Assembly (NCBI GenBank): GCA_031414535.1
Contig: JANNVQ010000041.1
Span: 1 to 64,000, forward strand
DNA length: 64,000 nucleotides
Origin: Gemmatimonas sp.
GTDB taxonomy: Bacteria > Gemmatimonadota > Gemmatimonadetes > Gemmatimonadales > Gemmatimonadaceae
Direction: 5' to 3'
The position numbers and the translations under genes are program-made. The notes under the pieces were generated by a model that did not search any database, was not told the origin of the DNA, and saw only the letters and a program-made list of their open reading frames with translations. This document shows, one piece after another, positions 3,560 through 57,488 of the stretch (position 1 is the stretch's first letter; the number at the start of each line of letters is the position of its first letter).

Positions 3560-4696
3560 ATGGCCGACTTTTACGAAACCCTCGGCGTCGCGAAGACGGC
3601 GTCCGATGAAGAAATCAAGCAGTCGTATCGCAAGCTCGCGATGAAATACCATCCGGATCGCAACGGTGGCTCCAAGGAGGCAGAGGAGCAGTTCAAGGCG
3701 ATCATGGAGGCATACGACGTGCTACGCGATGCACAGAAGCGCGCCGCCTACGATCGCTACGGCGAGGCGGGCTTGCGTGGCGCGGGCGGTGGCGGCGCCG
3801 GCGGATTCCATCACGTGGATCTGTCCGAGGCGCTGAACATCTTCATGCGCGACTTTGGGCTTGGCGATCTGTTTGGCGGCGCGGGTGGCCAGCGGCAGAG
3901 CGCCGGTCCGCGTGCGGGCGCCGATGTGAAGGTGGACCTGCAGTTGACGATGCTCGAAGTTGCTACAGGTGTCACGAAGTCCGTGAAGATGAAGTTGCTC
4001 GATCCCTGTGGCACCTGCTCGGGCTCCGGTGCGGAAGCGGGCAGCAAGCCCGCGCGTTGCAGCACCTGCAATGGTCAGGGCGAGGTGCGTCGCGCGCAGC
4101 AGAGTTTCTTTGGGCAGTTCGTGTCGGTGGCTCCTTGCCCGACCTGCCGCGGCGAAGGCGTTATGATTGCGTCGCCCTGCAAGAACTGCCGTGGTGAGGG
4201 CCGTCAGCGCGGCGATCACACCATTGAACTCAAGGTGCCCGCGGGCGTGGCCACGGGACAGTACATGCAGCTGCGTGCCGTGGGTAATGCGGGCGTGCGT
4301 GGAGGGCCGCGCGGTGACGTGTTGGTGGTGTTTGAGGTGCTTGACGACGAGCGCTTTGAGCGCGACGGCGAGGATCTGTACTGCGAGGTGCTTGTCACCT
4401 ACCCGCAGGCGGTACTCGGCGCCGACCTTGATGTGCCTGGCGTGGTGGGGCCGCTCACGCTGCGCATACCGGAAGGCACGCAGAGCGGGGAAGTGTTCGT
4501 GATGCGTGGGCGCGGCTTGCCGCGCGTGAACGCTTCTGGCGCTGGCGACCTCCACGTGCGGGTGCAGGTGTGGACGCCGCAGAAGATGAGCAGAGAAGAG
4601 GCGAAGCTGGTGGAGAAGCTCCACGAGGTGACGCCGAAGCCGCCGGAGAAGCGGGAGAAGGGGTTCTGGGCGAAAATGAAGGAAGCGCTCTCTTGA
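3560..4696 (+). CDS. dnaJ: Chaperone DnaJ
   Basis: J domain with HPD, G/F region, four CxxCxGxG zinc-finger repeats. Confidence 0.98.
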
Positions 4697-4721
4697 CGGA
4701 TGACGGAAGACGGATGACGGA
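4694..4721 (+). repeat. Heptamer element copy (TGACGGA x4)
   Basis: TGACGGA TGACGGA AGACGGA TGACGGA; contains the dnaJ stop and the prmA ATG. Confidence 0.9.
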
Positions 4722-5556
4722 CGGGCGGTGGAATCGGGTTTCCGTTTCGCCTTCGCACGAATCGCTGCGTGACGCGCTGGCCGCGGCGATGTTTGCGGCG
4801 GGGGCTGAAGGCTTGCAGGATGCGGGGGCTTTGTTTGTGACGCATCTCGCGGCTGCGGTGGATGCGGATGCGTTCGTGGCTGCGCTGCGGGTGACTGATG
4901 CGGCGCTTGTGGCTGAGGTGACGCCGCTCGACGATACGGATTGGTCGGAGAAGTGGAAGGAGAGGATTACATCGCACGAGTTGGGCGCGCTGACGGTGAC
5001 GCCGCCTTGGTTGGCGGCGGGGCGTGATCCGGCCACGACAATCGTGATTGAGCCCGCGATGGCATTCGGCACTGGAGAGCATCCGACCACGCGCGGCGTG
5101 GTGCGGCTCATGCAGGGCGTCATTCGCGCGGGTGATGCCGTGGCGGATTTGGGTTCGGGCTCGGCCGTGCTCTCCATTGCGGCCGCGAAGTTGGGCGCGG
5201 CGCGGGTGTATGCCATCGAGATTGATCCGGATGCCACGGGCAATGCGGAAGAGAACATTGCGCGCAATGGTGTGGCGGACCGTGTGGCGGCGCTCGAAGG
5301 CGATGCCGCCGTGTTCTTGCCGCTGGTCGCGCCGGTGCGTGTGATTCTCGCCAATATCATTTCTTCTGTGCTCGTGGATCTCCTCCCACTGATGGCGATG
5401 ACCATTGCGGATGACGGGGTGATCATTTTGTCGGGTATTCTCGCCGAGGAGCGTAGCCGCATGATTGAGGCACTCACAGGCGCGGGCTGGCGCGTGGACG
5501 CTGAGGATGCGGAAGACCAGTGGTGGAGTGTGCGCTGCGTGCCGGCTCGCGTCTGA
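4714..5556 (+). CDS. prmA: Ribosomal protein L11 methyltransferase
   Basis: DWSEKWK, IEPAMAFGTGEHPTT, DLGSGSAVLSI, ANI, ILSGIL; start reassigned to ATG 4714. Confidence 0.95.
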   Translation: MTDGRWNRVSVSPSHESLRDALAAAMFAAGAEGLQDAGALFVTHLAAAVDADAFVAALRVTDAALVAEVTPLDDTDWSEKWKERITSHELGALTVTPPWLAAGRDPATTIVIEPAMAFGTGEHPTTRGVVRLMQGVIRAGDAVADLGSGSAVLSIAAAKLGAARVYAIEIDPDATGNAEENIARNGVADRVAALEGDAAVFLPLVAPVRVILANIISSVLVDLLPLMAMTIADDGVIILSGILAEERSRMIEALTGAGWRVDAEDAEDQWWSVRCVPARV

Positions 5557-5567
5557 GCCCGTTCGGG

Positions 5568-5600
5568 GTGAGATTCGACACGTGAGATTCGACGCGTGAG
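5568..5600 (+). repeat. 14-bp tandem duplication at the rsmE start
   Basis: GTGAGATTCGACAC GTGAGATTCGACGC GTGAG. Confidence 0.8.
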
Positions 5601-6327
5601 CCTTCCGACGTTCTTCGCCGAGGAACCATTTCATGCGCCGTCGAGCATCACGCTCGGCGAAGACGCGGCGCATCATATGCGGGTCCGCCGTCTGGAAATT
5701 GGCTCGCGACTCCGCCTGTTGGATGGTGCCGGGTCGCGGGGCGAGGGCGTACTCACGCAGCTGGCCAAGCGCCACGCCATCGTGAGCGTGGAAGAAGCCG
5801 AGGTGTCGGACGCTGGTGCCGCGATTCATCTCATGCTCCCGGTGGCCGATAAGGACCGGATGCTGTGGCTGGCGGAGAAGGCCGCCGAGCTTGGTGTGGC
5901 GAGTTGGCGACCCGTGCTCTTTAAGCGCTCGAAGAATGTGAATCCGCGTGGTGAGGGGCCGGTGTTTCAACAGAAGGTGCGGGCCCGGATGGTGAGCGCC
6001 TTGGAGCAAAGCGGTGGAGCTTGGCTCCCCGCGATGTATCCCGACGCCGTGGTTGAGCACGCCATCACGTCAAAGCCGGAAGGCGTGGCCATCGTGCTCG
6101 ACGCGGGAGCCCCGCCGATCTTGGACGTGCTGCGGAGCGCGGGTTCACTCGCCGACGGCGTGACGGTGGTGATTGGCCCCGAAGGAGGCTACGAGCCCGG
6201 TGAGCGCGCCGCGATGGAAGCTGGCGGATTCCTCGCCGCCTCCATCGGGAGCAATGTGCTGCGCTTTGAGACTGCCGCCATTGCCGCCATCGCTGCCGTA
6301 AGAGCCTCCCAAGACGCTGCCCGGTAG
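5596..6327 (+). CDS. rsmE: 16S rRNA m3U1498 methyltransferase RsmE
   Basis: HH.RVRR, EKAAELGV, IGPEGG, LRFETAA (SPOUT family). Confidence 0.95.
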   Translation: MSLPTFFAEEPFHAPSSITLGEDAAHHMRVRRLEIGSRLRLLDGAGSRGEGVLTQLAKRHAIVSVEEAEVSDAGAAIHLMLPVADKDRMLWLAEKAAELGVASWRPVLFKRSKNVNPRGEGPVFQQKVRARMVSALEQSGGAWLPAMYPDAVVEHAITSKPEGVAIVLDAGAPPILDVLRSAGSLADGVTVVIGPEGGYEPGERAAMEAGGFLAASIGSNVLRFETAAIAAIAAVRASQDAAR

Positions 6328-6336
6328 TGGCTGTGA

Positions 6337-6360
6337 GCGTCCGTCATCCGTCCTCCGTCC
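6337..6360 (-). repeat. Heptamer element copy (reverse)
   Basis: GCGTCCGTCATCCGTCCTCCGTCC, ending 10 nt before the hinT ATG. Confidence 0.85.
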
Positions 6361-6370
6361 AGTATTCGTT

Positions 6371-6709
6371 ATGACTGCCTGCCTCTTCTGCCGCATCGTC
6401 GCCAAGGAGATTCCCGCCGCCATCGTCGGCGAATCCGAGCACGCCTTGGCCTTCCGCGATATCAACCCGCAGGCGCCGGTGCATGTCTTGGTGATCCCCA
6501 AGCGGCATCTGACGTCGATGAATGACATCACCGACGGGGCTGAGGTCGCGGAGATTTCGAAGCTCGCGCTTCAGGTCGCGAGGGAGCTGGGCGTGGCCGA
6601 GTCTGGCTATCGGACCGTGATGAATACCGGCGGGGATGGGGGGCAGACGGTGCATCATTTGCATATGCACGTTTTGGGCGGGCGGGCGATGGATTGGCCG
6701 CCGGGGTGA
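6371..6709 (+). CDS. hinT: HIT-family nucleotide-binding protein
   Basis: CLFC, AFRDINPQAPVHVLVIPK, GQTVHHLHMHVLGGR, WPPG. Confidence 0.95.
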   Translation: MTACLFCRIVAKEIPAAIVGESEHALAFRDINPQAPVHVLVIPKRHLTSMNDITDGAEVAEISKLALQVARELGVAESGYRTVMNTGGDGGQTVHHLHMHVLGGRAMDWPPG

Positions 6710-6718
6710 GGTGAGGAG

Positions 6719-6792
6719 CGAGGAGCGAAGAGCGACAACGGAAGAGCGAAGTATTGAAGAGCGAGGGGGGAAGGGAGGAAGGGAGGAAGGGG
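6719..6792 (+). repeat. About 75-bp purine-rich dispersed repeat (GAAGAGC/GAAGGGAG units), copy 1
   Basis: Close match to the reverse complement of 47099-47173. Confidence 0.85.
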
Positions 6793-6824
6793 AGGATTGG
6801 AGCCACCCAGATTTGGGGGAGCGA

Positions 6825-6892
6825 GGGAGTAGTCCCCGCCCGTAGGGGTCGTGCTCGAAGAGGTCAGGCCCCGTAGGGCGGGGGCTGCTCCC
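6825..6892 (+). ncRNA. Candidate structured RNA or long hairpin
   Basis: 17-bp stem, symmetric GUA/GUA internal loop, 6-bp stem; all three non-Watson-Crick stem pairs are G-U on the + strand. Confidence 0.4.
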
Positions 6893-6926
6893 GAGCGCGC
6901 GCACAGAAACTAGCCCATCCCCGTCC

Positions 6927-6955
6927 TTGCCTAAGTCAAGGAACAGCCGTAACTT
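6927..6955 (+). promoter_or_regulatory. Sigma70-type promoter of the rpsU operon
   Basis: TTGCCT-17 nt-TAACTT. Confidence 0.6.
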
Positions 6956-7006
6956 GCGTGGCTACCTATGCCGGCGCCGAAAGCGCCACGAAGGGGGGAA
7001 ATCAGT

Positions 7007-7195
7007 TTGTCGGAAATTGTCATCCACGAAGACGAAAATTTCGAACGCGCGCTCAAGCGCTTCAAGAAGAAGTGCGAGAAGGCCGGGATCCTAGCGGACC
7101 TGCGCAAGCATCGCCACTACGAGAAGCCCAGCGAGAAGCGGAAGCGGAAGCTCAACACCGCTCAGCGTAAGAACCGTCGCACCCGCTCGACCTGA
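7007..7195 (+). CDS. rpsU: 30S ribosomal protein S21
   Basis: [28 protein letters not shown] start at 7007 after a G-rich SD. Confidence 0.97.
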
Positions 7196-12052: not shown

Positions 12053-12068
12053 CTTTCATTCGCCTGCA

Positions 12069-12092
12069 GCATCCGTCATCCGTCATCCGTCC
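12069..12092 (-). repeat. Heptamer element copy (reverse)
   Basis: GCATCCGTCATCCGTCATCCGTCC, ending 7 nt before ATG 12100. Confidence 0.9.
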
Positions 12093-12099
12093 CCAGACA

Positions 12100-12801: not shown

Positions 12802-12808
12802 GCAAGGC

Positions 12809-14626: not shown

Positions 14627-15170
14627 AGTGCGCATCATTGCCGGCCAGTATCGCGGCCGCCGCATTGCCGTGCCCGCCGCCGGCGTGCGTCCCACGGCCG
14701 ATCGCGTGCGCGAGGCCTGGATGAGCATCATCCAGATGAACATCCCGGACGCCCGGTGCTTGGACCTCTGCTCGGGCAGCGGCGCGCTGGGCCTCGAACT
14801 CTTAAGCCGCGGCGCCGAGCACGTCGACTTCGTGGAAAAGGACCCCGAGGTGCAGAAAGTGCTGGAGGCCAACATCGTCACCTTGGGCGCCACAGACCGC
14901 GCCACGGTCCACAAGAGCAGCGCCGAGAAGTTCGTAGAACAGCTTCCGTCATCCGTCATCCGTCCATTTGATCTTGCCGTCACCGACCCCCCCTACAACA
15001 AAGACATCGCCAGTTCTCTCGCCCACTACTGGCTCAAAGCGCCGTTCTCGACAATCTTTTGCTTAGAGCACGAAGCGTGGATTTCGCTGCCGGAGCCGGC
15101 AGAGGACGCCAGCGTTGACCGACGCCGTTACGGCGACACCGCCCTTACCATCTACCGTCTCAAGCACTGA
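14619..15170 (+). CDS. rsmD: 16S rRNA m2G966 methyltransferase RsmD
   Basis: RIIAG, RPT.DRVRE, LDLCSGSGALG.E.LSRGA, DPPY; sits upstream of coaD. Confidence 0.93.
   Translation: MSEVRIIAGQYRGRRIAVPAAGVRPTADRVREAWMSIIQMNIPDARCLDLCSGSGALGLELLSRGAEHVDFVEKDPEVQKVLEANIVTLGATDRATVHKSSAEKFVEQLPSSVIRPFDLAVTDPPYNKDIASSLAHYWLKAPFSTIFCLEHEAWISLPEPAEDASVDRRRYGDTALTIYRLKH
14942..14965 (-). repeat. Heptamer element copy inside rsmD, frame preserved
   Basis: GCTTCCGTCATCCGTCATCCGTCC, read as LPSSVIRP. Confidence 0.85.
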
Positions 15171-16447: not shown

Positions 16448-18045
16448 GCGACTTCGGCAAGGCGCTCTCGGCGTTTTCCGAAGCGTACGGCTGCGGAGCC
16501 ACGCTGTGGACCCAGTCGGCGCCGGGTGCGACGATTGAAGTCACCGCGACATCCGGTGGCGACGTGACGCCGCCCGATGGCTTTGCCCGCATTGAAGGTC
16601 CGGAGCCCGTGCCGCGCGACACGGCGCTGGGCCTGCAACTCGTGGTGCGCATCCCAGGACGTACGCGGGCCTGGCTGGGCATTGGCCCCGTAGCCGACGA
16701 CGACGTGGATGTGCGGAAGTGGCTGCGCGTGCTGGTGCCGGTGTTCTCCGAGATGCTGCAGGCCCACTGGGAGTCCAGCCACGCGGCGGACGAACTGATG
16801 GAGCGCTACGAGGAGATCAATCTTCTCTATTCCATCAGCGAAATTCTCGGGCGCACCGTCACGCTGGAGGAAGCCGCCAAGACGATCCTGCTCGAAGTCT
16901 CGGATACGGTGGGCGCAGACTATGGTGCGTTGCTCGTGCACGACGCCGCATCGGGACTGCTGCGGCCCGTGACCTCGCTACGCGCACCCAATGCGCCACC
17001 GGCGCTGCCGATTCCCACGGATGATCCCATTGCGGTGTCGGCGCGCGTCTTCCGCACGCGGCACGCGCTCTTGGTGAATGCCGGCGTGCTCGAGAGTCTG
17101 CTCGAAGCGCCGTTTCGCTCCGGGTCCATGCTCTCGGTGCCCATCACCTGGACCACGCCAGAGGGTGGAATCCCGCTCGGCGTGGTGTGCTTGAGCGGAC
17201 GTCGCAGCGGAGAGAATTTCACCGCCGGTGACGAGAAGCTCGTGGCGGCCGTGGGCTCGCAGATTGGCACTGCCATTCAGAACGCGAGGCTCGTACGGGC
17301 CACGATTGATCAAGAACGTCTGCAGGGTGAGATGCGCCTCGCGCACGACCTACAGATGAAACTGCTGCCATCGGGCGAGGTGGTGGCGCCCGACGCGCTC
17401 TGCGCCGTGCGCGTGGAGCCGGCCGAAGGTGTGGGCGGGGATTTTTACAATCTCTTCCAGCTCGGCAACGGTCGTATTGGCGTATTGGTGGGCGATGTGT
17501 CGAGTCACGGCTACCGCGCCGCCTTGATCATGGCGCTCGTGATGAGCGCGAGTGCCATCCATGCGCAGACCACGGCGGACCCCGCGGAGACCGTGACTGC
17601 ACTGTTCGCCACGCTCGACGAGGAACTGCGCGAGACGGAGATGTTTCTCTCGCTCTGCTACTGCGTGGTGGACCGTGAGGCGCGCAGCATTCGCTGGACC
17701 AACACCGGGCACCCCCACGCCTTCGTGATTGGCGCCGATGGCGTTCCTGTGCGACTCGCCGCCACCGATCCGCCGCTCGGCCTGGGACCTGAAGAGTTGC
17801 ACGTGAGCGAGCGGGCCTGGGATCCAGCACATGATTTGTTGGCATTGTTCACCGACGGCGTGTGCGACGCACGCAATCCGCGTGGCGAGGCGCTGGGCGA
17901 GGCCGCCGTCCTCGAGGTCCTCCGTGCACGGCGCAAGGAAGTGCCCTCGCGCATTGTGGATGGCGTGTTTGCGATGGTGGAAGGACATATGGGACGCGCC
18001 AAGCCACACGACGACCAAGCCGTGGTGATTATGAGGCTCGCGTGA
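16444..18045 (+). CDS. GAF plus PP2C (SpoIIE/RsbU-like) phosphatase
   Basis: GAF ending in AIQNARL; VGGDFY, GDVSSHG, FTDG, DDQA. Confidence 0.92.
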   Translation: MSDFGKALSAFSEAYGCGATLWTQSAPGATIEVTATSGGDVTPPDGFARIEGPEPVPRDTALGLQLVVRIPGRTRAWLGIGPVADDDVDVRKWLRVLVPVFSEMLQAHWESSHAADELMERYEEINLLYSISEILGRTVTLEEAAKTILLEVSDTVGADYGALLVHDAASGLLRPVTSLRAPNAPPALPIPTDDPIAVSARVFRTRHALLVNAGVLESLLEAPFRSGSMLSVPITWTTPEGGIPLGVVCLSGRRSGENFTAGDEKLVAAVGSQIGTAIQNARLVRATIDQERLQGEMRLAHDLQMKLLPSGEVVAPDALCAVRVEPAEGVGGDFYNLFQLGNGRIGVLVGDVSSHGYRAALIMALVMSASAIHAQTTADPAETVTALFATLDEELRETEMFLSLCYCVVDREARSIRWTNTGHPHAFVIGADGVPVRLAATDPPLGLGPEELHVSERAWDPAHDLLALFTDGVCDARNPRGEALGEAAVLEVLRARRKEVPSRIVDGVFAMVEGHMGRAKPHDDQAVVIMRLA

Positions 18046-18072
18046 GCGATCGCGTGAGCGATCGCGTGAGCG
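18042..18072 (+). repeat. 12-bp tandem repeat at the PP2C/rsmA junction
   Basis: GTGAGCGATCGC x2 + GTGAGCG. Confidence 0.8.
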
Positions 18073-18885: not shown

Positions 18886-18945
18886 CTCACGTCCCCCTTC
18901 TCACGTCCCCCGTCTCAAGTCCCCCGTCTCAAGCCCCCCGCCTCA
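18886..18945 (-). repeat. 14-bp tandem repeat (about 4 copies) starting at the rex stop codon
   Basis: Minus strand TGAGGCGGGGGGCT TGAGACGGGGGACT TGAGACGGGGGACG TGAGAAGGGGGACG TGAG. Confidence 0.85.
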
Positions 18946-21024: not shown

Positions 21025-21083
21025 GGACGGGTGACGGATGATGGATGATGGATGATGGATGATGGATGACGGATGACGGATGC
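21025..21083 (+). repeat. Heptamer element, longest copy (8 units + TGC)
   Basis: GGACGGG TGACGGA (TGATGGA)4 (TGACGGA)2 TGC, starting 5 nt after the stop. Confidence 0.95.
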
Positions 21084-21107
21084 GAAGACGTGCATCATAT
21101 TCCGGCC

Positions 21108-21989
21108 ATGACTGCTCCGACTCCGCTTCATCAGTCGCGCCAGCTTGGCGCCCTTCGCATTCACGCTCTGCAGGCCGGCGGGCAGCAGCTCGACGGCGGC
21201 GCCATGTTCGGCGTGGTGCCCAAGACCCTGTGGGAGAAGCGTATTCCCGCGGACGAGCGCAATCGCATTCCCATGGGGATGCGTTGCCTCCTCATTGAGC
21301 ACCCTGATGGGCTGGTGCTTATTGACAGTGGGGTGGGGAACAAGGAAGACGCGAAGTTCCTTGGGATTTATGGCGTCGAGGCGAGCGTGCCAGGGCATCG
21401 TTCGATGCTTGAGGCCGCCCTGGCGGCGGCGGGGTTTCGCGCCGACGACGTAAAGGTTGTGATCAACACGCACCTGCACTTTGATCACGCCGGTGGCAAC
21501 ACCTCGGTGACGGATTCGGGTGAGGTTGTCCCGACATTCGTGAACGCGCGTTACCTCGCGCACGCAGGGGAGATGCACTACGCCACGCACACCAACGAGC
21601 GCACGGCGGCGAGCTACTTCCCTCGCAATTGGGATTTACTCAAGTCCACGGGTCAACTGGAGCTGGTGCAGCACGATGTTGAGCTGCTGCCGGGGATTCG
21701 GATGCGGCACACGCCGGGACATACGCCGTTTCACCAAAGCATTGTGATCGAGAGCGCGGGCGAGACCGCCGTGTTCTTGGGCGACCTGTGCCCGACAGCG
21801 CATCACATACCGCTGGCTTGGATCATGGGCTACGACGTGGAGCCCCTCGTGACTCTGGAATCCAAGCGGGCGATGTGGAAGGATGTGGTGGACGGCAACT
21901 GGATGGTGATTTTTGAGCACGATGCGGTTGAGGCTTGGGGCCGGGTGCGGTTGGGATCCAAGGGATATGAGTTCGCACAGGACGGATGA
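21108..21989 (+). CDS. Metallo-beta-lactamase-fold hydrolase (YtnP-like)
   Basis: LDGGAMFGVVPK.LW, THLHFDHAGG, GHT, MGYD, FEHD. Confidence 0.9.
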   Translation: MTAPTPLHQSRQLGALRIHALQAGGQQLDGGAMFGVVPKTLWEKRIPADERNRIPMGMRCLLIEHPDGLVLIDSGVGNKEDAKFLGIYGVEASVPGHRSMLEAALAAAGFRADDVKVVINTHLHFDHAGGNTSVTDSGEVVPTFVNARYLAHAGEMHYATHTNERTAASYFPRNWDLLKSTGQLELVQHDVELLPGIRMRHTPGHTPFHQSIVIESAGETAVFLGDLCPTAHHIPLAWIMGYDVEPLVTLESKRAMWKDVVDGNWMVIFEHDAVEAWGRVRLGSKGYEFAQDG

Positions 21990-22065
21990 CGGATGACGGA
22001 TGACGGATGACGGAGGCTACGGGGCCTTCGCGACGCCTCTCGCATCCGTCATCCGTCTTCCGTCC
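21980..22065. repeat. Inverted pair of heptamer elements forming a long hairpin
   Basis: GGACGGA(TGACGGA)4 at 21980-22014 and GCATCCGTCATCCGTCTTCCGTCC at 22042-22065. Confidence 0.9.
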
Positions 22066-22074
22066 AGTTGCCGC

Positions 22075-22103
22075 TTGACCTAACCCCCACCCAGCACTAG
22101 CTT
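22075..22103 (+). promoter_or_regulatory. Sigma70-type promoter of the infC operon
   Basis: TTGACC-17 nt-TAGCTT. Confidence 0.7.
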
Positions 22104-22109
22104 TAGCGA

Positions 22110-22270
22110 TAATTCAGCCAAGTACACGAACGGGCGTTCGTGTCACCCTCTGGCCTCTCTCCTCGTGAGAGTAGTGCTGCAGGAGTCCAGAACAAGCCAC
22201 TCCGCTCGAGGAAACTCGTGCGGAGTCGTGTGTTTACGCGGACTCCGAATGCGGGGTTCGCGTTTTTTGT
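22110..22270 (+). promoter_or_regulatory. Structured leader/attenuator upstream of infC (L20-leader-like)
   Basis: AAGTA-stem-TCACC motif, GAAA-capped hairpin, intrinsic terminator 22236-22268 before the infC SD, alternative pairing available. Confidence 0.6.
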
Positions 22271-22294
22271 TTTCCCTTCGTCAGGAGCCGTCGT

Positions 22295-22819
22295 ATCCAG
22301 GAACCCGCCGCTAAGCCGAGAGGCCCCCGTATCAATCGTCAGATCCGTATTTCGCCGGTGCGTGTTATCGGGGCGGACGGAGCGCAGTTGGGGGTTCTGG
22401 AAGTGGATGTCGCGTTGAAGATGGCCGATGAGGCCGGACTCGACCTGGTAGAAGTCGCCGCAGCCGCTCGTCCACCGGTAGTCCGCATCATGGACTACGG
22501 GAAGTACAAGTTCGAGATGGCCAAGCAGGCACGACAGGCGAAGAAGAAGCAGCACGTGATCCAGCTGAAAGAAGTGAAGTACCGTCCCGGCATTGAGAAG
22601 CACGACTTCGACACGAAGACCAATCACGCACGGTCCTTCATCGGAGACGGCAACAAGGTGAAGGTGACGTTGATGTTCCGCGGTCGGCAGATCGCGCATC
22701 CTGAACTCGGCATGGCAGTCGTCGAGCGGGTGGCGCAGGCCTTGGCAGATGTGGCCAAGGTGGAAACCCCGGCCAAGCTCGAAGGCAAGGCACTTACCAT
22801 GATCCTCACACCGAAGTGA
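22295..22819 (+). CDS. infC: Translation initiation factor IF-3 (ATC start)
   Basis: The conserved RIN.QIR...VRVI lies upstream of the ORF-track start; in-frame ATC 7 nt after [21 protein letters not shown]. Confidence 0.95.
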
Positions 22820-23407: not shown

Positions 23408-23431
23408 GGACGGAAGACGGATGACGGATGC
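23408..23431 (+). repeat. Heptamer element copy
   Basis: GGACGGA AGACGGA TGACGGA TGC, directly after the rplT stop. Confidence 0.9.
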
Positions 23432-23468
23432 GGGGGGCAGCCAGCAGTGGTTGCCCCCCGCAACTTTT
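23429..23468 (+). terminator. Intrinsic terminator after rplT
   Basis: TGCGGGGGGCAGCCA-gcag-TGGTTGCCCCCCGCA followed by ACTTTT. Confidence 0.75.
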
Positions 23469-23522
23469 CCCCCTCAGTCAGACGTCGCTCCGCTCGCGCC
23501 TGACCGTTAGTTTTGGCTTGTA

Positions 23523-23546
23523 GCATCCGTCATCCGTCATCCGTCC
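23523..23546 (-). repeat. Heptamer element copy (reverse)
   Basis: GCATCCGTCATCCGTCATCCGTCC, ending 5 nt before the pheS ATG; identical to 12069-12092. Confidence 0.9.
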
Positions 23547-27372: not shown

Positions 27373-27680
27373 CCCTGCATTCAACGCGCGTGCGCATTGT
27401 GGGCGAGGAGTACACGATTCGCTCCGAGGTGCCCGCTGAAGTGACGAAGGCCATCGCCGAGCACGTGGACGCGGCTATTCGAAAAGTGCTGGAGAATCCC
27501 GCCATCACAGATCCGGGAAAGGCGGCCATTCTCGCGGCGATGAGCATCACCGACGAGTTGTTTAAGGAGCGGGCCGGGCAAGAGGAGGTCTCGGAGCGCA
27601 TGCGCTCGCTCTCGGGCGAATTGCGCCGTTGGTTGCCACCGGCCAAGCGTGTGACGACATCCACGGACCTGCGCGTCTAG
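27369..27680 (+). CDS. zapA: Cell division protein ZapA
   Basis: V.I.G.EY.I, A.HVD, AILAAMSITDELF; pheT-zapA-rny context. Confidence 0.88.
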   Translation: MTLHSTRVRIVGEEYTIRSEVPAEVTKAIAEHVDAAIRKVLENPAITDPGKAAILAAMSITDELFKERAGQEEVSERMRSLSGELRRWLPPAKRVTTSTDLRV

Positions 27681-27735
27681 CAACGCGCCTCTGGCAACGC
27701 GCCTCTGGCGCCGCGCCTCTGGCGACGCGCGTCCG
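27680..27735. repeat. 14-bp tandem repeat (4 copies) between convergent zapA and kinase
   Basis: GCAACGCGCCTCTG x2, GCGCCGCGCCTCTG, GCGACGCGCGTCCG. Confidence 0.85.
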
Positions 27736-32005: not shown

Positions 32006-32891
32006 GCGGATTGATGGCGTTGCCATCGCGGCCAAGGTGCGCGCCGAGGTTGCGACGCACGCCGCGGCGCTGAAGGCCGCGGGTGTGACGCCCGGTCTTA
32101 CGGTGGTACTGGTGGGCGAAGACCCGGCGAGCACCTTCTACGTGGGCGCCAAGGAGAAGGCCTGCAAAGAAGCAGGCATGCATGGCGTCACGGTTCGGTT
32201 GCCGGCGACGACGCCAGAGGCTGAGCTGCTCGCGGTGATTGATAACCTGAACGCCGACCCATCGGTGCACGGAATTCTCGTGCAGATGCCCGTGCCAAAG
32301 CACATGGATCCGCAAAAGGTGATTCGCCGCATCAATCCCATGAAAGACGTGGATGGTTTTCATCCCATCAATGCGGGCAAGGTGCTGATTGGCGACGCTG
32401 ATGGCTTTGCGCCCTGCACTCCGGCGGGCGTCCAGGTGATGTTGATGGAGAGTGGCGTCGAGACCAGCGGCAAGGAAGCCGTGATTCTTGGACGCAGCAC
32501 GATTGTCGGCAAGCCGATGGCGGCGCTACTCATGCAGAGTGGGAAGGGCGCGGATTGCACGGTGACCATCTGCCACTCGCGCACCAAGAATCTCGCTGAG
32601 CACACTCGGCGTGCAGACATTCTCATTGCGGCGATCGGCAAGGCCGAGATGGTGACGGCCGATATGGTGAAGCCGGGCGCCGTGGTGATTGACGTCGGCA
32701 TCAACCGCGTGGACGATCCGACGGCCAAGAAAGGGTACCGCATCGTAGGCGACGTGAAGTTCGACGAAGTGTCGCAGGTCGCGTCGAAGATCACGCCGGT
32801 GCCTGGTGGCGTGGGCCCGATGACCATCGCCATGCTGTTGGCCAACACGGTGCGCGCAGCCAAGCTCACGCTCGTGAGCTCACGCTCGTGA
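31995..32891 (+). CDS. folD: Methylene-THF dehydrogenase/cyclohydrolase
   Basis: [32 protein letters not shown]. Confidence 0.98.
32864..32891 (+). repeat. 14-bp tandem duplication ending at the folD stop
   Basis: GCTCACGCTCGTGA x2. Confidence 0.8.
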
Positions 32892-32904
32892 GCACGCGCT
32901 GACC

Positions 32905-43365: not shown

Positions 43366-44452
43366 GCACTTCTGCGAGCGCGGCGAGGCAGGCCTCGAGG
43401 CCTGCCACCGTGTGGTCACCCATGTGGCCGATGCGCACGGTGGAGTCTTGCAGCTGTCCGTATCCGCGCCCGATGGTAAAGCCGCGCTCCTGCATCGCGA
43501 GCACTACCTCGCGCGATGTACGCTCGGGTGGCAGCACGAGGCAACTGATGCTCGGACTCCGCTCTCCCGCTCGCGCCTGCAGGGTTATCGCAAGCCCGCG
43601 CGAGCGCTCGGCCGCTACCCACGCGTCGAGCATCTCGCGCATCGAAGTGTGACGGGCCCAGCGCGCTTCTATGCCTTCGTTGAGGATGCTACGCAGTTGC
43701 GCATCGGCCGCGTAGAAGAGTGGAATCGCTGGTGTGCTCGGTGGACCGCCGCGGATGAATGCTTCTTCGTACTCAACGGGGTCCAGATAGCGCCCGCGTG
43801 CGGGAACGACTGAGGCCTGAAGGATGTAGGCCTCGCTTGCGACCGCGAAGGCGAGGCCCGGCGGCATGGCTAGAGCCTTCTGCGAGCCCGTGAGCACAAA
43901 ATCCACGCCCCAGGCTTCCGTCTCCAGCTGTGCGGCGGCGACTCCAGTCACGGCATCCACTAGGCACATCACGCCGTATCGGTGTGCGAGCTCCGTGAGG
44001 ATGCGCACATCGCTCAGCGCACCCGTGCTGGTCTCAGAATGCACCAGCGTCATCGCTGCGTAAGGCTCCGAGGCGAGATGCTGTTCCACGAGATCAAACG
44101 GGTGCGTCTCCCCCCAGGGCACCGAGACCACGCGCGTGCGGCGTCCGCAGCGCTGGGCGATGCGGGCAAACCGCTCAGCAAATCCGCCATTCACGAGCGA
44201 GAGGATTGGGCCTTCGGGTGCACCACGAATCGCCATCTCCATCAGCGCCGTTGCCGAGGCGCTCACGCAGTACACCGGACGCGTCGTGCGGAACACTTGC
44301 TGCATGCCGGCGACGACACGCGCGTAGATGGCGGAGAACTCCGGGCCACGGTGCGCAATCATGGGCTGCGCCATCGCCTGAAGGATCTCTGGGCGGACTT
44401 CCGTGGGGCCCGGGAGGAAGAAGCGGCCGAAGTCGCTCACGTGCTCGCTCAC
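43355..44452 (-). CDS. Class V PLP-dependent aminotransferase (alanine-glyoxylate/serine-pyruvate type)
   Basis: FLPGPT, HRG.EF, HSETSTG, VDAVT, GSQKALAMPPG, RIGHMG; GTG overlaps the crcB stop. Confidence 0.93.
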   Translation of the reverse strand: MSEHVSDFGRFFLPGPTEVRPEILQAMAQPMIAHRGPEFSAIYARVVAGMQQVFRTTRPVYCVSASATALMEMAIRGAPEGPILSLVNGGFAERFARIAQRCGRRTRVVSVPWGETHPFDLVEQHLASEPYAAMTLVHSETSTGALSDVRILTELAHRYGVMCLVDAVTGVAAAQLETEAWGVDFVLTGSQKALAMPPGLAFAVASEAYILQASVVPARGRYLDPVEYEEAFIRGGPPSTPAIPLFYAADAQLRSILNEGIEARWARHTSMREMLDAWVAAERSRGLAITLQARAGERSPSISCLVLPPERTSREVVLAMQERGFTIGRGYGQLQDSTVRIGHMGDHTVAGLEACLAALAEVLRA

Positions 44453-44853
44453 GCACTGGCTCCGCGTGCGAGCATCATGCCGGCTGCCGCGGCGCCAACC
44501 GAAAGCGTTACGCTCGCGAGAGTGTAGAGCGCCGCGCGCGGCATGGCGCCAGCCTGCAGCATTGACACTGTGTCCAATGAAAAGCTTGAGAATGTCGTGA
44601 AACCGCCGAGCACGCCGATAGTAACCATGGCGCGCCACTGGGGTGAGGCGGATTCACCCAGAATAGCACCGCCGGCAAGAGCACCGAGAATCAACGAACC
44701 CGCCACGTTGATTCCGAGCGTTGCCCAAGGAAAGCCGTCGAGCGCCGCGTGCTGGCGAGCCCACTCGCCGATGAGAAACCGGCAAGACGCCCCGATCGCG
44801 CCGCCGGCGGCGACCCAGAGCACGGTGAGGGCGGGAAGCGCTGTCGCTTGCAT
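44449..44853 (-). CDS. crcB: Fluoride channel Fluc/CrcB
   Basis: GGAIGA.CRF, FPWATL.IN..GS, G.LGGFTTFSSF. Confidence 0.95.
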   Translation of the reverse strand: MQATALPALTVLWVAAGGAIGASCRFLIGEWARQHAALDGFPWATLGINVAGSLILGALAGGAILGESASPQWRAMVTIGVLGGFTTFSSFSLDTVSMLQAGAMPRAALYTLASVTLSVGAAAAGMMLARGASA

Positions 44854-45868: not shown

Positions 45869-45889
45869 GGTCCTGCTCCATCCGTTCAG

Positions 45890-45962
45890 AGCGGGAAACG
45901 GGACTCGAACCCGCGACCCCAACCTTGGCAAGGTTGTGCTCTACCAACTGAGCTATTCCCGC
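45890..45962 (-). tRNA. tRNA-Gly (GCC)
   Basis: GCGGGAATAGCTCAGTTGGTAGAGC...TTGCCAA...GGTTCGAGTCCCGTTTCCCGCT; CCA not encoded. Confidence 0.97.
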
Positions 45963-46058
45963 GTGAGGAGAATGGTAGATAGGCTCGGCGTGTGAGGCAA
46001 GCGGTTCCTGTGAAACGCTCTGCAAGACACCGTCGCCCATGAGTAAGTTTCTCTCCTT

Positions 46059-47060
46059 ATGAGCGCCCCCACCGACGTCGTCTCGCTGGCCGCCGAATTA
46101 TTGGCCATTCCCTCTACCACACGCGACGAAGGCGCGGCGGTGGAGTTCGTGTCCCGTTGGCTGGTGGCGCGCGACTGGAACGTCACCGTGCAGGAAGTCA
46201 CGCCAGGTCGCGGCAATATCTGGGCCTCGCGGAGGGGCGGGGGCGTGACACTCTCCACGCACCTCGACACCGTGCCGCCCTACGTGCCGCCCCGCCGCGC
46301 CGACGGCAAGCTCTACGGGCGGGGGGCCTGCGACGCCAAGGGCATCGCCGCCGCCATGATGGTGGCCGCTGATCGGATGGTGCTGGCCGGCGAAGAACGC
46401 GTGGATCTGCTGTTCGTGGTGGGCGAGGAGCGCGGCTCCGACGGCGCCCGCATGGCCAACCAATTGCCGGCCACGTCCAAGTGGCTCATCAACGGCGAAC
46501 CCACGGAGAGCCTGCTCGCTTCGGGTTGCAAAGGCGCCCAGCGCGTCATCGTGCGCACCAGCGGCCGCGAAGCGCACTCCGCCTACGCGCAGCTCGGTTC
46601 ATCCGCCATCACGCCAATGTTGCAGATGCTGCAGGAGCTGCAGTCACTTGAGCTCCCGGTGGACCAAGTGCTCGGCCCCAGCACCGTGAACGTTGGCTTG
46701 ATCCGTGGCGGCACAGAGGCCAACATCGTCCCCGGCGCCTGCGAAGCCGAGATGATGTTCCGCTTGGTAGGTGACGTGAAGGAGATCAAGGCCGCGTTAA
46801 AGCCATGGGCCCATGGCCGCGCCGAGCTCGAGTACGGCTCCCACATCCCCGCCCAGCATTTTCACACAGTCCCCGGCTTCCAGACCGCCCCCATGGCCTA
46901 CACCAGCGACATCCCATTGCTCGGCAACTGGGGCAAGCCATTGCTCTTCGGCCCAGGCTCCATCCACGTCGCACACACGCCTGACGAGTACATCGAGGAG
47001 TCGGAGCTCCGCGCCAGCGTAGACTCGTACATTGCCTTAGTGAAGCATTTACTCTCGTAG
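46059..47060 (+). CDS. M20 family metallo-hydrolase (ArgE/DapE-like)
   Basis: THLDTVPP, GRGACDAKG, GEE, GEPT, AHS, FGPG....AHT.DE. Confidence 0.9.
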   Translation: MSAPTDVVSLAAELLAIPSTTRDEGAAVEFVSRWLVARDWNVTVQEVTPGRGNIWASRRGGGVTLSTHLDTVPPYVPPRRADGKLYGRGACDAKGIAAAMMVAADRMVLAGEERVDLLFVVGEERGSDGARMANQLPATSKWLINGEPTESLLASGCKGAQRVIVRTSGREAHSAYAQLGSSAITPMLQMLQELQSLELPVDQVLGPSTVNVGLIRGGTEANIVPGACEAEMMFRLVGDVKEIKAALKPWAHGRAELEYGSHIPAQHFHTVPGFQTAPMAYTSDIPLLGNWGKPLLFGPGSIHVAHTPDEYIEESELRASVDSYIALVKHLLS

Positions 47061-47173
47061 TCTCTTCCGCTCGTAGTCTCTTCCCCTCGTAGTCTCTTCC
47101 CCTTCGTCCCTTCGTCCCTTCAGTTTCCTCGCTCTTCAATACCTCGCTCTTCACTTTCGCTCTTCGCTCCTCG
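47054..47173 (-). repeat. Composite repeat: three 16-mers plus copy 2 (inverted) of the 75-bp dispersed repeat
   Basis: CTCGTAGTCTCTTCC(G/C) x3, then CCCTTCGT and CGCTCTT units; ends 2 nt before the asd start. Confidence 0.85.
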
Positions 47174-47175
47174 TC

Positions 47176-52028: not shown

Positions 52029-52044
52029 GTCGGCGCGCTCCGCG

Positions 52045-53998: not shown

Positions 53999-54062
53999 CG
54001 CACCTGTCTACTGCTAACCCGCTAGTTGTTCGTACGAGGAAGTGCGGCTACTGACTTTATCG

Positions 54063-55511
54063 CTACGCAATCTCTTCGCGATGCAGGTCCATGTTGTGCC
54101 GCCGCAGCCATCCGGAGTACAACGAGTCTTTCTCGTAGCGGTTCATCACCGCCTTCGTAAACACCACCGCGAGCATGAGCGGCATCACGAGCTCGAAGTC
54201 GTGCGTCATTTCAAACACGAGGAGAATGCCCGTGATAGGCGCGCCGGTCGCCCCCGCGACCATCGCCCCCATGCCCGCGAGTGCGTAGAGGGCAGGGTCC
54301 ACCTGCGCGGCGGGAAACGCCGACTGCACGAGCACACCGAACGCGCCGCCGGTTGTCGCGCCCACGAAGAGCGCTGGCGTAAACACTCCCCCCGACCCGC
54401 CGGCGTTCAACGTCAACGATGTGGCGAGAATCTTTGCGACGGCGAGGCTGATGAGCGTCCACCAAGGCATGCGGCCAAATAGTTCCAGTGGCGCATTCAG
54501 ATGGCCGTCTCCTGCCGTTGCACCCTGCGTGACAAATGCAATGATGCCAACGAGCATACCGCCGAGCCACGGCAACCAGCGCGCGCTGATGCGACCCGTG
54601 CGCACAAACGCATCCACGCCAAAGTACGTGCGCACGAACAACGTGCCCATCAGCGCACAGATGACACCGAGCGCGGGGAGCAGTAGCCCGATTTCCCAAC
54701 CGCTGAGTGCGCCGAGCTCGCCTGGAACGGGGAACGCCGGACCCGAGCCAAAAATGCCTCGCGCCACCACCGCCGCCACCACCGCCGCCACCACGACGGG
54801 CGAGAAGTATCCGCCAGCAAAGGTGCCGAGTATTTCCTCAAGCGCGAAAAACGCACCGGCGAGCGGTGCATTGAACGCGGCAGAAATTGCGCCCGCCGCG
54901 CCGCAGGCCACGAGCACACGCAGGCGGCCCGGCTTGAAGCGAAACATTCGCCCAAGCCAAGAACCCAGCGTGGCGCCGATGACGACCACTGGCCCCTCTG
55001 CGCCGGCCGAACCGCCGCCACCAATCGTGATGGCACTCGCCAGCGTGCGACCAAGCGCAGGGCGAGGGGCGATGCGGCCACCCCGATGCTCCACGGCGGC
55101 CTGAATATCTGGAACGTTCATGCCGTCGTGTTCGCGCCCCACGATACGCATCGTCCACGATGCCACGGCAAACGTCACGGCAGTCAGGAGCGGCCGGAAC
55201 GCGAGGAGGCCCAACTCTGGCAGCACCAGCGCTGGCGCCACCACGAGCGCCGAGTGCGCAAGCGAGATCCCTTTGTAGAAACCCAGCACCCCGAGGGCAG
55301 CACCGATTCCGATCACCACGGCGAAAGCCACGAGCGTCGGTTCGGCCCCGAGCCGAAGTGCGGTAAAACGCTGTACGAGGTGGTCGCGACCCGACCGCAG
55401 CGCGTGCAGCAGGCGACGTCGGCCCCGGCGCACCCGCGTGCGGACGACCCGGATAGACCGGCTCGAACGTCTCGCCCGAGGCGAGCCGTCGTCGGGGGGT
55501 GGTGCGTTCAT
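54063..55511 (-). CDS. ClC-family anion channel/transporter without CBS domains
   Basis: GMNVP, GAEGP, AFNAPLAG.FF.LE, GGVFTP, SLY; start uncertain. Confidence 0.9.
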   Translation of the reverse strand: MNAPPPDDGSPRARRSSRSIRVVRTRVRRGRRRLLHALRSGRDHLVQRFTALRLGAEPTLVAFAVVIGIGAALGVLGFYKGISLAHSALVVAPALVLPELGLLAFRPLLTAVTFAVASWTMRIVGREHDGMNVPDIQAAVEHRGGRIAPRPALGRTLASAITIGGGGSAGAEGPVVVIGATLGSWLGRMFRFKPGRLRVLVACGAAGAISAAFNAPLAGAFFALEEILGTFAGGYFSPVVVAAVVAAVVARGIFGSGPAFPVPGELGALSGWEIGLLLPALGVICALMGTLFVRTYFGVDAFVRTGRISARWLPWLGGMLVGIIAFVTQGATAGDGHLNAPLELFGRMPWWTLISLAVAKILATSLTLNAGGSGGVFTPALFVGATTGGAFGVLVQSAFPAAQVDPALYALAGMGAMVAGATGAPITGILLVFEMTHDFELVMPLMLAVVFTKAVMNRYEKDSLYSGWLRRHNMDLHREEIA

Positions 55512-55552
55512 TGCTCGCGGAATCTAACCCCTTATGCCGCAATGCGTTCTGC

Positions 55553-55581
55553 TTGACCTTGGGGCAGTTGGCTGGTAGCTT
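55553..55581 (+). promoter_or_regulatory. Sigma70-type promoter of rpsA
   Basis: TTGACC-17 nt-TAGCTT. Confidence 0.7.
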
Positions 55582-55667
55582 TACAGGCTTGCCCGAAATA
55601 CGGGCCGCGTAGGCCAAACTTCCTTTCCTCGTCCGCGGCGAGCCGAACCCCCGCGTGTGGAGTTGTC

Positions 55668-57458
55668 ATGACCGTAGCCGATATGCTGAGCCCAGAGGAA
55701 ATCGCGCGCCAAAAGCGCGATGCCCAGCGCGCCCAGCTCCGCCCCCTCGCCAACCGCCGCCCCGAGCTCTACGACGAAGATGAAATCTCGTCGGATGAAT
55801 TCGAAGCGATGATGGAGATGTACAACGGGACCCTCGCTTCCATCGAAGAAGGCGAGATCGTTAAGTCCCGTGTGCTTGAGATTCGCGAGAACCTCGTCGT
55901 GCTCGATATCGGATTCAAGTCCGAAGGCACGATCCCGCTCGAAGAATTCAAGGACATGCCCGAGCTCAAGGTCGGGGACGAAGTCGAAGTCCTCCTTGAG
56001 CACCTCGAAGATTCCGAGGGCTCGGTCGTATTGTCGAAGAAGAAGGCCGACTTCATGCGCGTGTGGGAGCGTATCCGCGTCGCGTACGAGTCCGACCAGC
56101 CGGTGACCGGCACGCTCGTCAAGAAGATCAAGGGTGGCGTGGTCGTCGACCTCATGGGTGTCGACGCCTTCCTCCCGGGTTCGCAGATCGCGCTGCGTCG
56201 CGTGCCGAACATCGACGAGCTCCTCGGCCACACCTACGACTTCAAGATCATCAAGCTCAACAAGCGCCGCCGCAACATCGTGGTGTCGCGCCGTGTGATA
56301 CTGGAAACCGAGCGCGCCGGCAAGCGTGAGAAGTTGATGAAGGAGTTGGCCAAGGATCAGGTCCGTAAGGGCGTGGTCAAGAACATCACGGACTTCGGTG
56401 CCTTCATCGATCTCGGCGGTGTTGACGGTCTGCTTCACATCACCGACATGTCCTGGGGCCGCATCTCGCATCCGAGCGAGATGGTCCACATCGGCATGGA
56501 GCTCGAGATCAAGGTGCTTGATATCGATTGGGAGCGCGAGCGCATCTCGCTCGGCCTCAAGCAGCTGCAGGCGTATCCGTGGAAGGATGTGGCGGACAAG
56601 TTCCCGGTCGGCACGCGCGTCTCGGGTAAGGTCGTCTCCATCACCAACTACGGCGCCTTCATTGAGCTCGAGCCGGGCATCGAAGGCCTCGTGCACATCT
56701 CCGAGATGAGCTGGACGCGCAACGTCCGTCATCCGTCGAAGCTCGTCAGCATTGGCGAGGCGATTGACGCGGTGGTGCTCAAGGTCGATCCGACCGAAGA
56801 GAAGATCTCGCTCGGCATGAAGCAGACTGAGCAGGATCCGTGGATGGTGTTGCCGCTCAAGTACCCGGTCGGCACCCGTCTCAACGGCAAGGTTCGTAAC
56901 CTGACCTCGTTCGGCGCCTTTGTCGAAATCGAGCCGGGCATCGACGGCCTCATTCACATCTCCGACATGTCCTGGACCAAGCGCGTCCAGCATCCGTCGG
57001 AAGTCGTGAAGAAGGGTGACGCGGTGGACGTGGTGATCCTCAACATTGACGCCGAGAACAAGCGCATCTCGCTCGGCCTCAAGCAAGCGTCCGAGGATCC
57101 GTGGCTGCGCATCGGCGAGACCCTGCCAGTTGGCACGGAAATGCCGGGCAAGGTCGCCCGCCTGATGGACAAGGGCGTGGTCGTGGACATCGGCAACGAC
57201 ATCGAAGGCTTCGTGCCGCTCTCGCACCTCAACATCTCGGGCCAGCAGGTCAACAGCTCGGCTGACGTGGCGTGGGAAGCGATGTTGATGAACGTGAAGA
57301 TTCTCGAGATTGACCCGATTCATCGTCGTATCGTGCTGGGCGTGACGGACATTCCGGCTGGTCAGGAGCGTCCGGCGGAGCCGAGCAAGGTGCACACGGA
57401 AGACGAAGAGCTGGCGCCGATTCCGGCTGACCTCGACGCGGTTGTTGACGACGAGTAA
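55668..57458 (+). CDS. rpsA: 30S ribosomal protein S1
   Basis: Six S1 repeats (DIGFKSEG, AFLPGSQ, FGAF.D/E, GL.HI(T/S)DMSW, RISLGLKQ). Confidence 0.98.
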   Translation: MTVADMLSPEEIARQKRDAQRAQLRPLANRRPELYDEDEISSDEFEAMMEMYNGTLASIEEGEIVKSRVLEIRENLVVLDIGFKSEGTIPLEEFKDMPELKVGDEVEVLLEHLEDSEGSVVLSKKKADFMRVWERIRVAYESDQPVTGTLVKKIKGGVVVDLMGVDAFLPGSQIALRRVPNIDELLGHTYDFKIIKLNKRRRNIVVSRRVILETERAGKREKLMKELAKDQVRKGVVKNITDFGAFIDLGGVDGLLHITDMSWGRISHPSEMVHIGMELEIKVLDIDWERERISLGLKQLQAYPWKDVADKFPVGTRVSGKVVSITNYGAFIELEPGIEGLVHISEMSWTRNVRHPSKLVSIGEAIDAVVLKVDPTEEKISLGMKQTEQDPWMVLPLKYPVGTRLNGKVRNLTSFGAFVEIEPGIDGLIHISDMSWTKRVQHPSEVVKKGDAVDVVILNIDAENKRISLGLKQASEDPWLRIGETLPVGTEMPGKVARLMDKGVVVDIGNDIEGFVPLSHLNISGQQVNSSADVAWEAMLMNVKILEIDPIHRRIVLGVTDIPAGQERPAEPSKVHTEDEELAPIPADLDAVVDDE

Positions 57459-57464
57459 GTAGCG

Positions 57465-57488
57465 GGACGGATGACGGAAGACGAATGC
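57465..57488 (+). repeat. Heptamer element copy
   Basis: GGACGGA TGACGGA AGACGAA TGC, starting 6 nt after the rpsA stop. Confidence 0.85.

Follow-up and report, generated by a model that had tools for sequence, protein, structure and literature searches.

Sites of tandem-heptamer arms persist in Gemmatimonas while the arm sequence switches between repeat families, some of which go with an enclosed gene

The window analyzed here, a stretch of 64,000 nucleotides (nt) forming positions 1-64000 of contig C41 in the genome of a Gemmatimonas sp. (G000; other G numbers denote the genomes compared with it), carries ten copies of an array of the heptamer GACGGAW. They belong to a family of arms, about 24 nt long and of the structure G-(GACGGAW)3-GC, that is spread over the whole genome. 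The sites occupied by such arms persist across species while the arm sequence often switches from one repeat family to another and the host parts lying between arms stay, and new arm sites arise occasionally. Moreover, a sister family with the unit GARGAGC is tied to the gene that it encloses, and two families are abundant only where the enclosed gene is present. Coordinates given without a contig are positions in the window. The genome comprises 3.70 megabases and is 98.4% complete, and its gene bounds come from a custom hexamer caller (3315 genes, 92% coding), whose stops are reliable and whose starts are less so.

Persistence was assessed against G017, using 800 kilobases (kb) of this genome (a quarter of it), with a median protein identity of 85% in the first 400 kb. 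Among 509 orthologous junctions, 46 are occupied in both genomes, 13 in G000 only, 10 in G017 only and 440 in neither (p = 1.5e-43); for junctions with gaps of at least 40 nt, the respective counts are 45, 12, 9 and 116. In 21 of the 46 doubly occupied junctions, the two genomes have no arm family in common according to hand-made patterns. The empty and filled orthologous sites anticipated by a sequence-only reading of the window also exist, both in this alignment and at the second IleRS site described below: a junction with overlapping TAATG corresponds to one of 49 or 244 nt, and a junction of 8 nt to one of 148 nt.

The junction between rplT and pheS illustrates how arms change around a constant interior. 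In the window, it holds a convergent, hairpin-forming pair of three units each (23408..23546, unstranded), whose left arm begins 2 nt after the rplT stop and whose right arm, at 23523, ends 5 nt before the pheS ATG. Between its arms lie, at about 23430-23461, a terminator-like hairpin and, at about 23508-23513, a -10-like TAGTTT; this promoter/terminator reading was made by eye, and a consensus scan flagged neither. The inner hairpin and a TANNNT motif are kept genus-wide while the arms differ, being built of GACGGAW, GAGACKT, GGTGTGA, GATGGGA or other units, or being unrecognizable. In six genomes of another bacterial family, this junction is only 3 nt long.

Arms also vary within coding sequences and in a promoter. 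The solo arm at 14942..14965 (minus strand) lies in frame in a variable loop of RsmD, where it reads LPSSVIRP. In a comparison of 22 rows, two mis-framed rows having been left out, this loop contains a whole GACGGAW hairpin in G004 and G023, a GAGACKT arm in G012 and a GAGATGT arm in G003, and it is plain in 14 other members of the genus. In the isoleucyl-tRNA synthetase (IleRS), the repeat unit of a first loop is the one that flanks the hppA-ychF locus of the same genome in 8 of 10 readable genomes, the exceptions being G008, which is plain, and G009, which is unclear. A second IleRS loop is short and plain in G015, G008, G007, G006 and G024, filled in five clade members, and longer, without clear repeats, in G009. 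Finally, the predicted promoter of rpsA has a 17-nt spacer (55559..55575, plus strand) that is plain in G000 and, at the same length, is made of GACGGAW units in G017 and G004 and partly so in G023.

Genome-wide, G000 contains 328 (GACGGAW)n arms, compared with none in two 3-nt block shuffles, and 313 sites within three mismatches of the 24-nt consensus, compared with none in a shuffle. Exactly three units are found in 252 of the 328 arms (range 2-9), G precedes 272 of them and follows 319, and C occupies the second following position in 255. With such defined ends and a fixed unit number throughout the genome, the earlier proposal of a unit element rather than a random repeat holds. Arm cores agree with the consensus at 98.5% of positions in G000 and 97.8% in G017, figures inflated by a detection that requires two near-perfect units; identity at fourfold sites is 55%, and the flanks of 35 orthologous G000/G017 arms are 47-48% identical. 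A wider consensus scan gave 131, 97, 63, 22 and 8 sites at zero to four mismatches, i.e., little tail. Within 200 nt, arm neighbours are convergent in 107 cases, divergent in one and on the same strand in two, and 114 arms are solos. The spacers between paired arms range from 9 to 161 nt and include GC hairpins and a tRNA-Asp; among 50 spacers of at least 30 nt, 18 hold a GC hairpin, 11 of them with a run of A or T. An apparent 10.5-nt phasing of the spacers disappeared once those of 9-11 nt were removed.

The orientation of the arms, which the sequence-only reading had described from ten copies, is non-random across the genome: the GGAC end is the one nearer a gene in 240 of 294 intergenic arms (p = 4e-29), solos included (75/95). 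The median distance from a stop is 5 nt and that from a predicted start 18 nt. This polarity is one strand-symmetric rule, by which the purine arm is directed into the gap, away from whichever gene edge it adjoins. At junctions of at least 25 nt, occupancy is 15.5% when the genes are convergent, 11.1% when they are co-directional and 5.8% when they are divergent. Pairing of 5' and 3' arms within one mRNA showed no excess over the general clustering of arms. There are 27 arms within predicted genes, all in frame and including two whole hairpins in ileS, although two or three of the 27 are chance two-unit matches or artefacts of open reading frame (ORF) ends. The arms are clumped along the genome (dispersion p = 5e-11), with long blocks of ordinary GC content free of three-unit arms between them (C14:1-240000, C1, C9, C28 and C30:1-80000). 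The suggested preference for junctions of housekeeping genes is in line with a mild enrichment at conserved junctions (44/509 compared with 140/2748). In addition, 94 of the 328 arms run on inward with words such as ACTGC, ACGGC, AAAGC or ACAGC, the same words precede the arms of an octamer family, and hexamer runs of ACTGC-type words fill the loops of G017 rsmD and G004 ileS. These words are possibly a fourth arm family, for which no enclosed gene was found.

The pair at C27:29657-30248 encloses a TIGR02436/PF05635 gene, encoding an Avd-like four-helix-bundle protein, in antisense between hppA and ychF, which bears out the guess, made from the window alone, that such genes might be carried between arms. 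Two sister families have equivalent genes. GARGAGC, with 37 arms in G000 by one pattern, encloses a second PF05635 gene on contig C29, and the octamer family, with 99 arms, encloses the only GxxExxY (PF13366) gene of the genome. There is thus one gene per arm family. A purine arm upstream together with a pyrimidine arm downstream is found at only 6 of the 3315 predicted genes, namely the two PF05635 genes, the GxxExxY gene, a RecX-like and a SelW-like gene, both identified by visual inspection of their translations, and a spurious call of 29 amino acids. Of the cargo types that had been envisaged, four-helix-bundle and GxxExxY genes (the latter in octamer arms) are therefore present in pairs, whereas G000 has no REP-associated tyrosine transposase (RAYT; REP, repetitive extragenic palindromic) and no reverse transcriptase is shared. 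The model of the first PF05635 protein (mean predicted local distance difference test, pLDDT, 92) matches Xcc0516 (template modelling, TM, score 0.82), BT_0352 and Avd 4DWL (TM 0.72).

Inverted flanks recur around metagenomic relatives of this gene, in 35 of the 66 loci with usable flanks (80 loci in total) and in none of 131 mismatched pairs. In loci L004, L006, L008, L009, L013 and L024, the downstream arm often covers the last codons and the stop of the gene, so that the arm encodes the C-terminal tail of the protein (e.g., SPDS, LHPTP or PSPSP). G024 has two versions of the hppA-PF05635-ychF locus (L085 and L086), both with GACGGAA arms, which possibly reflect mixed strains in the bin. Viral contigs gave three matches, solo arrays in which no enclosed gene was seen; in two related phage contigs (L241 and L243), a solo GACGGAW array lies between structural-looking genes.

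Across 55 genomes of the genus, at least nine matches to the GARGAGC pattern were found in 10 of the 11 genomes in which the PF05635 gene is of the matching subfamily, and in none of the 44 that lack it; one or two of the matches per genome are the flanks of the gene itself. On the host tree, sister groups differ in this way at least three times (G000/G012/G023 versus G017/G004, G018 versus G005/G006, and G007 versus G015). GxxExxY is present in all 10 genomes with at least three octamer matches and in 16 of the 45 others. GAGACKT is abundant (19-134 matches) in just four genomes, whose hppA-ychF PF05635 gene it flanks, and has two matches in G000, a member of the same host clade (support 98.7/99). 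The GACGGAW family occurs in 11 of the 54 other genus genomes and in none of 16 genomes of other bacterial families. The tree of the hppA-ychF protein groups partly by flanking unit.

The explanation that we favour, with a probability of roughly 55%, is that the arms are recognized by a protein, maintained singly, seeded rarely and rewritten in place. A small gene, of the PF05635 type or GxxExxY in the case of the octamers, sits inside an inverted pair of its own arms; the pentameric four-helix-bundle product of the PF05635 genes would bind its tandem units, one unit per protomer by analogy with Avd. The target of binding is probably DNA, because both orientations are used alike. Protein binding and short-patch recombination among dispersed arms would then seed and rewrite arms, the maintained unit being the single arm and the hairpin merely the outcome of two arms that face each other. 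Host selection would leave arms at tolerant positions only.

Several observations weigh against this explanation. GACGGAW is abundant and near its consensus in G017 (117 matches; 96% complete), G023 (156) and G004 (52), where two PF05635 genes per genome were found, neither of them flanked by GACGGAW; G063 and G068 likewise have the repeat, with few matches, without a matching gene. In 21 of 25 genus genomes, the hppA-ychF gene stands at the same locus, which points to a resident gene with changing flanks rather than to a recently moving cassette; the flanks of a gene inherited in this way may be rewritten like any other site. The grouping of G000 with G024 in the PF05635 tree has a support of only 87/70. 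Identical loop residues (HASQAQFNRY; HPSQAQFNR) accompany different units, so there is no simple code at that loop. Two of the 21 junctions without a common family are the flanks of the PF05635 gene itself and at least one more results from a pattern miss, leaving about 20 switches. In addition, the arm families were defined by hand-made patterns, the genomes of close kin are not independent, and the search for a catalytic partner of the heptamer families found none. A residue-to-base code at PF05635 residues 55-65 was rejected because equal residues pair with different units; among the metagenomic loci, loose covariation was seen by eye only.

The arms could instead belong to a non-autonomous element resembling either the REP doublets that form hairpins (REPINs) or a miniature inverted-repeat transposable element (MITE). 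A cassette or a gene-less hairpin would insert whole, solos would be its remnants, and a family switch would combine a fresh insertion with loss of the old copy. We regard this as unlikely, even though it is favoured by the clean empty and filled junctions, by the second IleRS site, empty in five outgroup genomes and filled in the clade, and by a PF05635 cassette that lies between hrcA and dnaJ in G004, G012 and G017 and is absent there in G000. The octamer copies with common interiors and nested arms of two families likewise favour it. The idea that solos are scars likewise fits the rsmD solo, which is a whole hairpin in two relatives, and the mismatches of solo arms (1.06) slightly exceed those of paired arms (0.84; p = 0.047); however, there is no decay tail, the solos are nearly pristine, and 82 of the 313 arms, as well as all six solos of the window, have no trace of a partner. 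There is no support for the notion that the two arms of a pair are the termini of a single inserted element. Target-site duplications show no excess over shuffled flanks (106 pairs, three offsets), only 4 of 1225 spacer pairs share at least 18 nt, and the pairs enclose a conserved host hairpin, a promoter-like motif, the tRNA-Asp and the RecX-like and SelW-like host genes. Replacement preserves length in the rpsA promoter spacer and the RsmD loop, and the RAYT route was dismissed because a search of the 98.4% complete G000 with PF01797 (Y1_Tnp) matched nothing.

A process without any protein, in which repeats arise by slippage and spread by gene conversion and hairpin correction, and in which the enclosed genes are bystanders given the locally common repeat, has appreciably less to recommend it. 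The variation from two to nine units, a contig of sequencing run X3 that is 14 nt shorter than the window, the success of GACGGAW in genomes without a matching gene and the over-representation of heptamer repeats in many bacteria, as described in the main texts of PMC4679880 and PMC4692102, all speak for it. It does not explain the exact three units and fixed ends of 252 of the 328 arms, the two families whose presence follows specific genes, or the inside-arms orientation, almost confined to PF05635/GxxExxY genes and recurrent in the metagenomic loci. We consider it least probable of all that the arms act mainly as RNA, with RNase III cutting or looping out the junction RNA at their stems under selection on mRNA processing. 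Pairs do yield long stems, convergent junctions are occupied more often than divergent ones, and the Coxiella intervening sequence (IVS) discussed below offers a precedent; yet about a third of the arms are solos with no local pairing that are nonetheless pristine, and the promoter-like motif between arms may put two arms on different transcripts. Whole hairpins stand in frame in ileS and other genes, and those in ileS suggest a poor fit with obligatory RNA excision. Genes with a pyrimidine arm at the 5' side and a purine arm at the 3' side number 16 of 31 doubly flanked genes, not above the 58% expected from the margins.

A stronger version of the protein-recognition explanation is that Avd-like pentamers, or GxxExxY nucleases in the case of the octamers, direct a copy-and-replace process without a transposase or reverse transcriptase, overwriting rival families. 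This is a tentative and rather doubtful proposal. The process would write its own recognition units into any tolerant stretch, be it a gene edge, a protein loop or a promoter spacer. The reverse-transcriptase route was discarded, PF00078 being found in only 2 of the 55 genus genomes and not in G017. If copy-and-replace were true, a change of protein allele would repaint hundreds of loci, and the heptamer repeats that are unexplained in many bacteria would stem from this process. The genus offers a handle on these questions, because G000 alone has three families, each around a gene of its own, and sister species provide presence/absence contrasts. Fixed sites with a repeat that varies by species (the IleRS and RsmD loops, rplT-pheS and the rpsA promoter spacer) make the link testable by a binding assay. 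The repeats rewrite loops of essential proteins.

Cyanobacterial short tandemly repeated repetitive sequences are lineage-specific intergenic heptamer arrays, and the palindromic elements of Rickettsia show that dispersed palindromic DNA is tolerated in frame in the loops of essential proteins; compared with the latter, the G000 arms are much shorter, built of heptamers and swapped between families at one loop. To our knowledge, no cause has been given for heptamer repeats of this stop/start polarity, and no function has been assigned to PF05635 proteins, although their structures are solved. The GGGAATC and GGGGA(C/T)T heptamers of Xanthomonas and Nostoc are among the closest known systems. 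The main text on them reports dispersed arrays with a preferred unit number, the purine strand at most 50 bp after stops and the pyrimidine strand before starts, 70-75 convergent pairs and rarity at divergent junctions (Rehm et al., 2015; PMC4692102). G000 likewise has arrays of heptamers with a preferred number of units (three here and four there), the polarity at stops and starts, and convergent pairs. GACGGAW has no run of three G and hence forms no quadruplex, unlike those repeats. The passages of PMC4692102 that were consulted name no enclosed gene, sister families or same-site switches. The polarity is thus already published for Xanthomonas, and what is new here are the site-level counts of turnover, the three families with three genes and the presence/absence contrasts.

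As described by Warrier et al. (2016; PMC4990558), the Coxiella IVS combines an S23p ORF with tandem GACAGAT heptamers, its terminal stem measures 28 bp, and RNase III cuts it. It shares with our system a PF05635 gene within terminal inverted repeats and heptamers beside the ORF (GACAGAT there, GACGGAT here). In contrast, the gene-bearing copy of G000 lies in antisense between hppA and ychF, outside rRNA, is one of 107 or more pairs, and coexists with hundreds of dispersed gene-less arms; no 23S rRNA gene, where an rRNA copy could lie, is assembled in G000. In REPIN/RAYT systems, according to Bertels and Rainey (2011; PMC3116915), a genome has several groups of repeats, each of which flanks a single gene. 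G000 resembles them in this and in its hairpin-forming inverted doublets and singlets, but its arm consists of tandem heptamers without an internal palindrome rather than of a REP palindrome, it has no RAYT, its spacers are variable with host parts, and its singlets are only slightly more decayed. Terminal inverted repeats are shared with MITEs, whereas target-site duplications and homologous interiors are not.

The TAACTGA repeats of Beggiatoaceae form lineage-specific intergenic arrays, many just before starts and some in frame, for which the main text suspects a binding protein (MacGregor, 2015; PMC4679880). As described there, they differ in being mostly in one orientation, with few inverted pairs, and that main text does not contain 'four helix', 'helix bundle' or 'intervening'. 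Avd is reported to bind an RNA stem-loop using all five protomers (main text of bioRxiv 2023.10.23.563531), and Avd and PF05635 are given as homologous (main text of PMC10053308). The diversity-generating retroelements to which Avd belongs resemble our system in the pentamer-forming four-helix fold matched above and in replacing their target in place, and differ in a sequence identity of 11% and in that 53 of the 55 genus genomes have no reverse transcriptase. In the literature consulted, mostly the texts of open-access papers, no study connects PF05635 or GxxExxY genes with dispersed arms made of heptamers, and none reports family switches at one site.

Within the window, the ten copies listed by the sequence-only reading, with their ends and their distances to stops and starts, were all recovered at 4694, 6337, 12069, 14942, 21025, 21980, 22042, 23408, 23523 and 57465. 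Nine of them start with GGACGG, the exception being 4694, and seven have three units, while 4694 has four, 21025 eight and 21980 five. The array at 4694..4722 (plus strand) is a solo purine arm whose first three bases (4694-4696) are the TGA of dnaJ; this junction holds a GGGAGAK-family hairpin in G017 and a GAGACKT arm followed by a GACGGAW arm in G004. The solo arm of three units at 6337..6360 (minus strand) ends 10 nt before the hinT ATG, at a junction that is armless in G017 and consists of a stop/start overlap in G019 and G002. A similar solo arm of three units at 12069..12092 (minus strand) ends 7 nt before the ATG of a Zn-ribbon gene, and its junction has the GACGGAW family also in G023, G004 and G024, and the GGGAGAK family in G017.

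The expanded purine arm of eight units at 21025..21085 (plus strand), which includes GATGGAT variant units, has the stop of a dnaQ-like gene 5 nt upstream and overlaps the predicted start of an MBL gene; the contig of run X3 spanning 21026-22510 is the one that is 14 nt shorter than the window. A convergent pair of five and three units (21980..22065, unstranded) lies between the MBL gene and the infC promoter and forms an 86-nt hairpin (-58 kcal/mol, z -7.3). The TGA of the MBL gene (21987-21989) is supplied from inside the first array, and the second arm (22042-22065) ends 8 nt before an infC -35-like TTGACC. At this junction, there is a GAGACKT hairpin in G012 and G023, a GGGAGAK hairpin in G017 and no arm in G015, G021, G013, G016 and G001. 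The last copy, a solo purine arm of three units at 57465..57488 (plus strand), begins 6 nt after the rpsA stop and precedes a terminator-like hairpin, both also present in G017. A two-unit match at 56724 within rpsA is ordinary conserved coding sequence.

Sister families are also represented in the window. A GARGAGC purine arm follows the hinT stop (6713..6796, plus strand), another GARGAGC arm precedes asd (47100..47173, minus strand), where G017 has GACGGAW plus GAGACKT arms, and a remnant GAGACKT arm (18886..18945, minus strand) lies at the convergent junction after rsmA, which is empty in G017, with overlapping genes. Pieces from read-runs X1, which may be the run from which this DNA came, and X2 show no differences from the window. 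A relative of about 92% identity in run X3 spans arm sites with net length changes of 0, +22, -14 and -8 nt, and no joint cleanly removing an arm was found among the matches listed.

A scan of the window with Rfam found two tRNAs and nothing further. The infC leader (22103-22297) has no Rfam match at the gathering score, yet its motifs CCACCCTCTGGCC ... GTGCTGCAGGAGTCC and its closing hairpin are conserved throughout the genus and also in another bacterial family. The probable start of infC is an in-frame ATC at 22295, preceded by GGAG, and we would guess that the leader is a lineage-specific one of the L20/IF3 type. Further short tandem arrays with periods of 8-16 occupy junctions at 5568-5600, 18038-18072, 27671-27730, 32863-32900, 44433-44462 and 47054-47121; several have a CGTGAG/CTCACG core in common, and pattern counts gave no large dispersed family. 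Integron-like arrays, with a repeated attC-type palindrome and toxin-antitoxin cassettes, were found on C3, C6, C9, C31, C36, C42 and C52 among the matches listed in a general scan for inverted repeats, most of which were attC sites, and the sole reverse transcriptase of G000 is located at C9:45871-46395. An ice-binding-like protein (PF11999) is encoded at 57671-58549, directly after rpsA. Finally, small genes at C49:21017-21668, with arms nearby, resemble by eye those of light-harvesting (puf) subunits, and G000 is likely a phototrophic Gemmatimonas.

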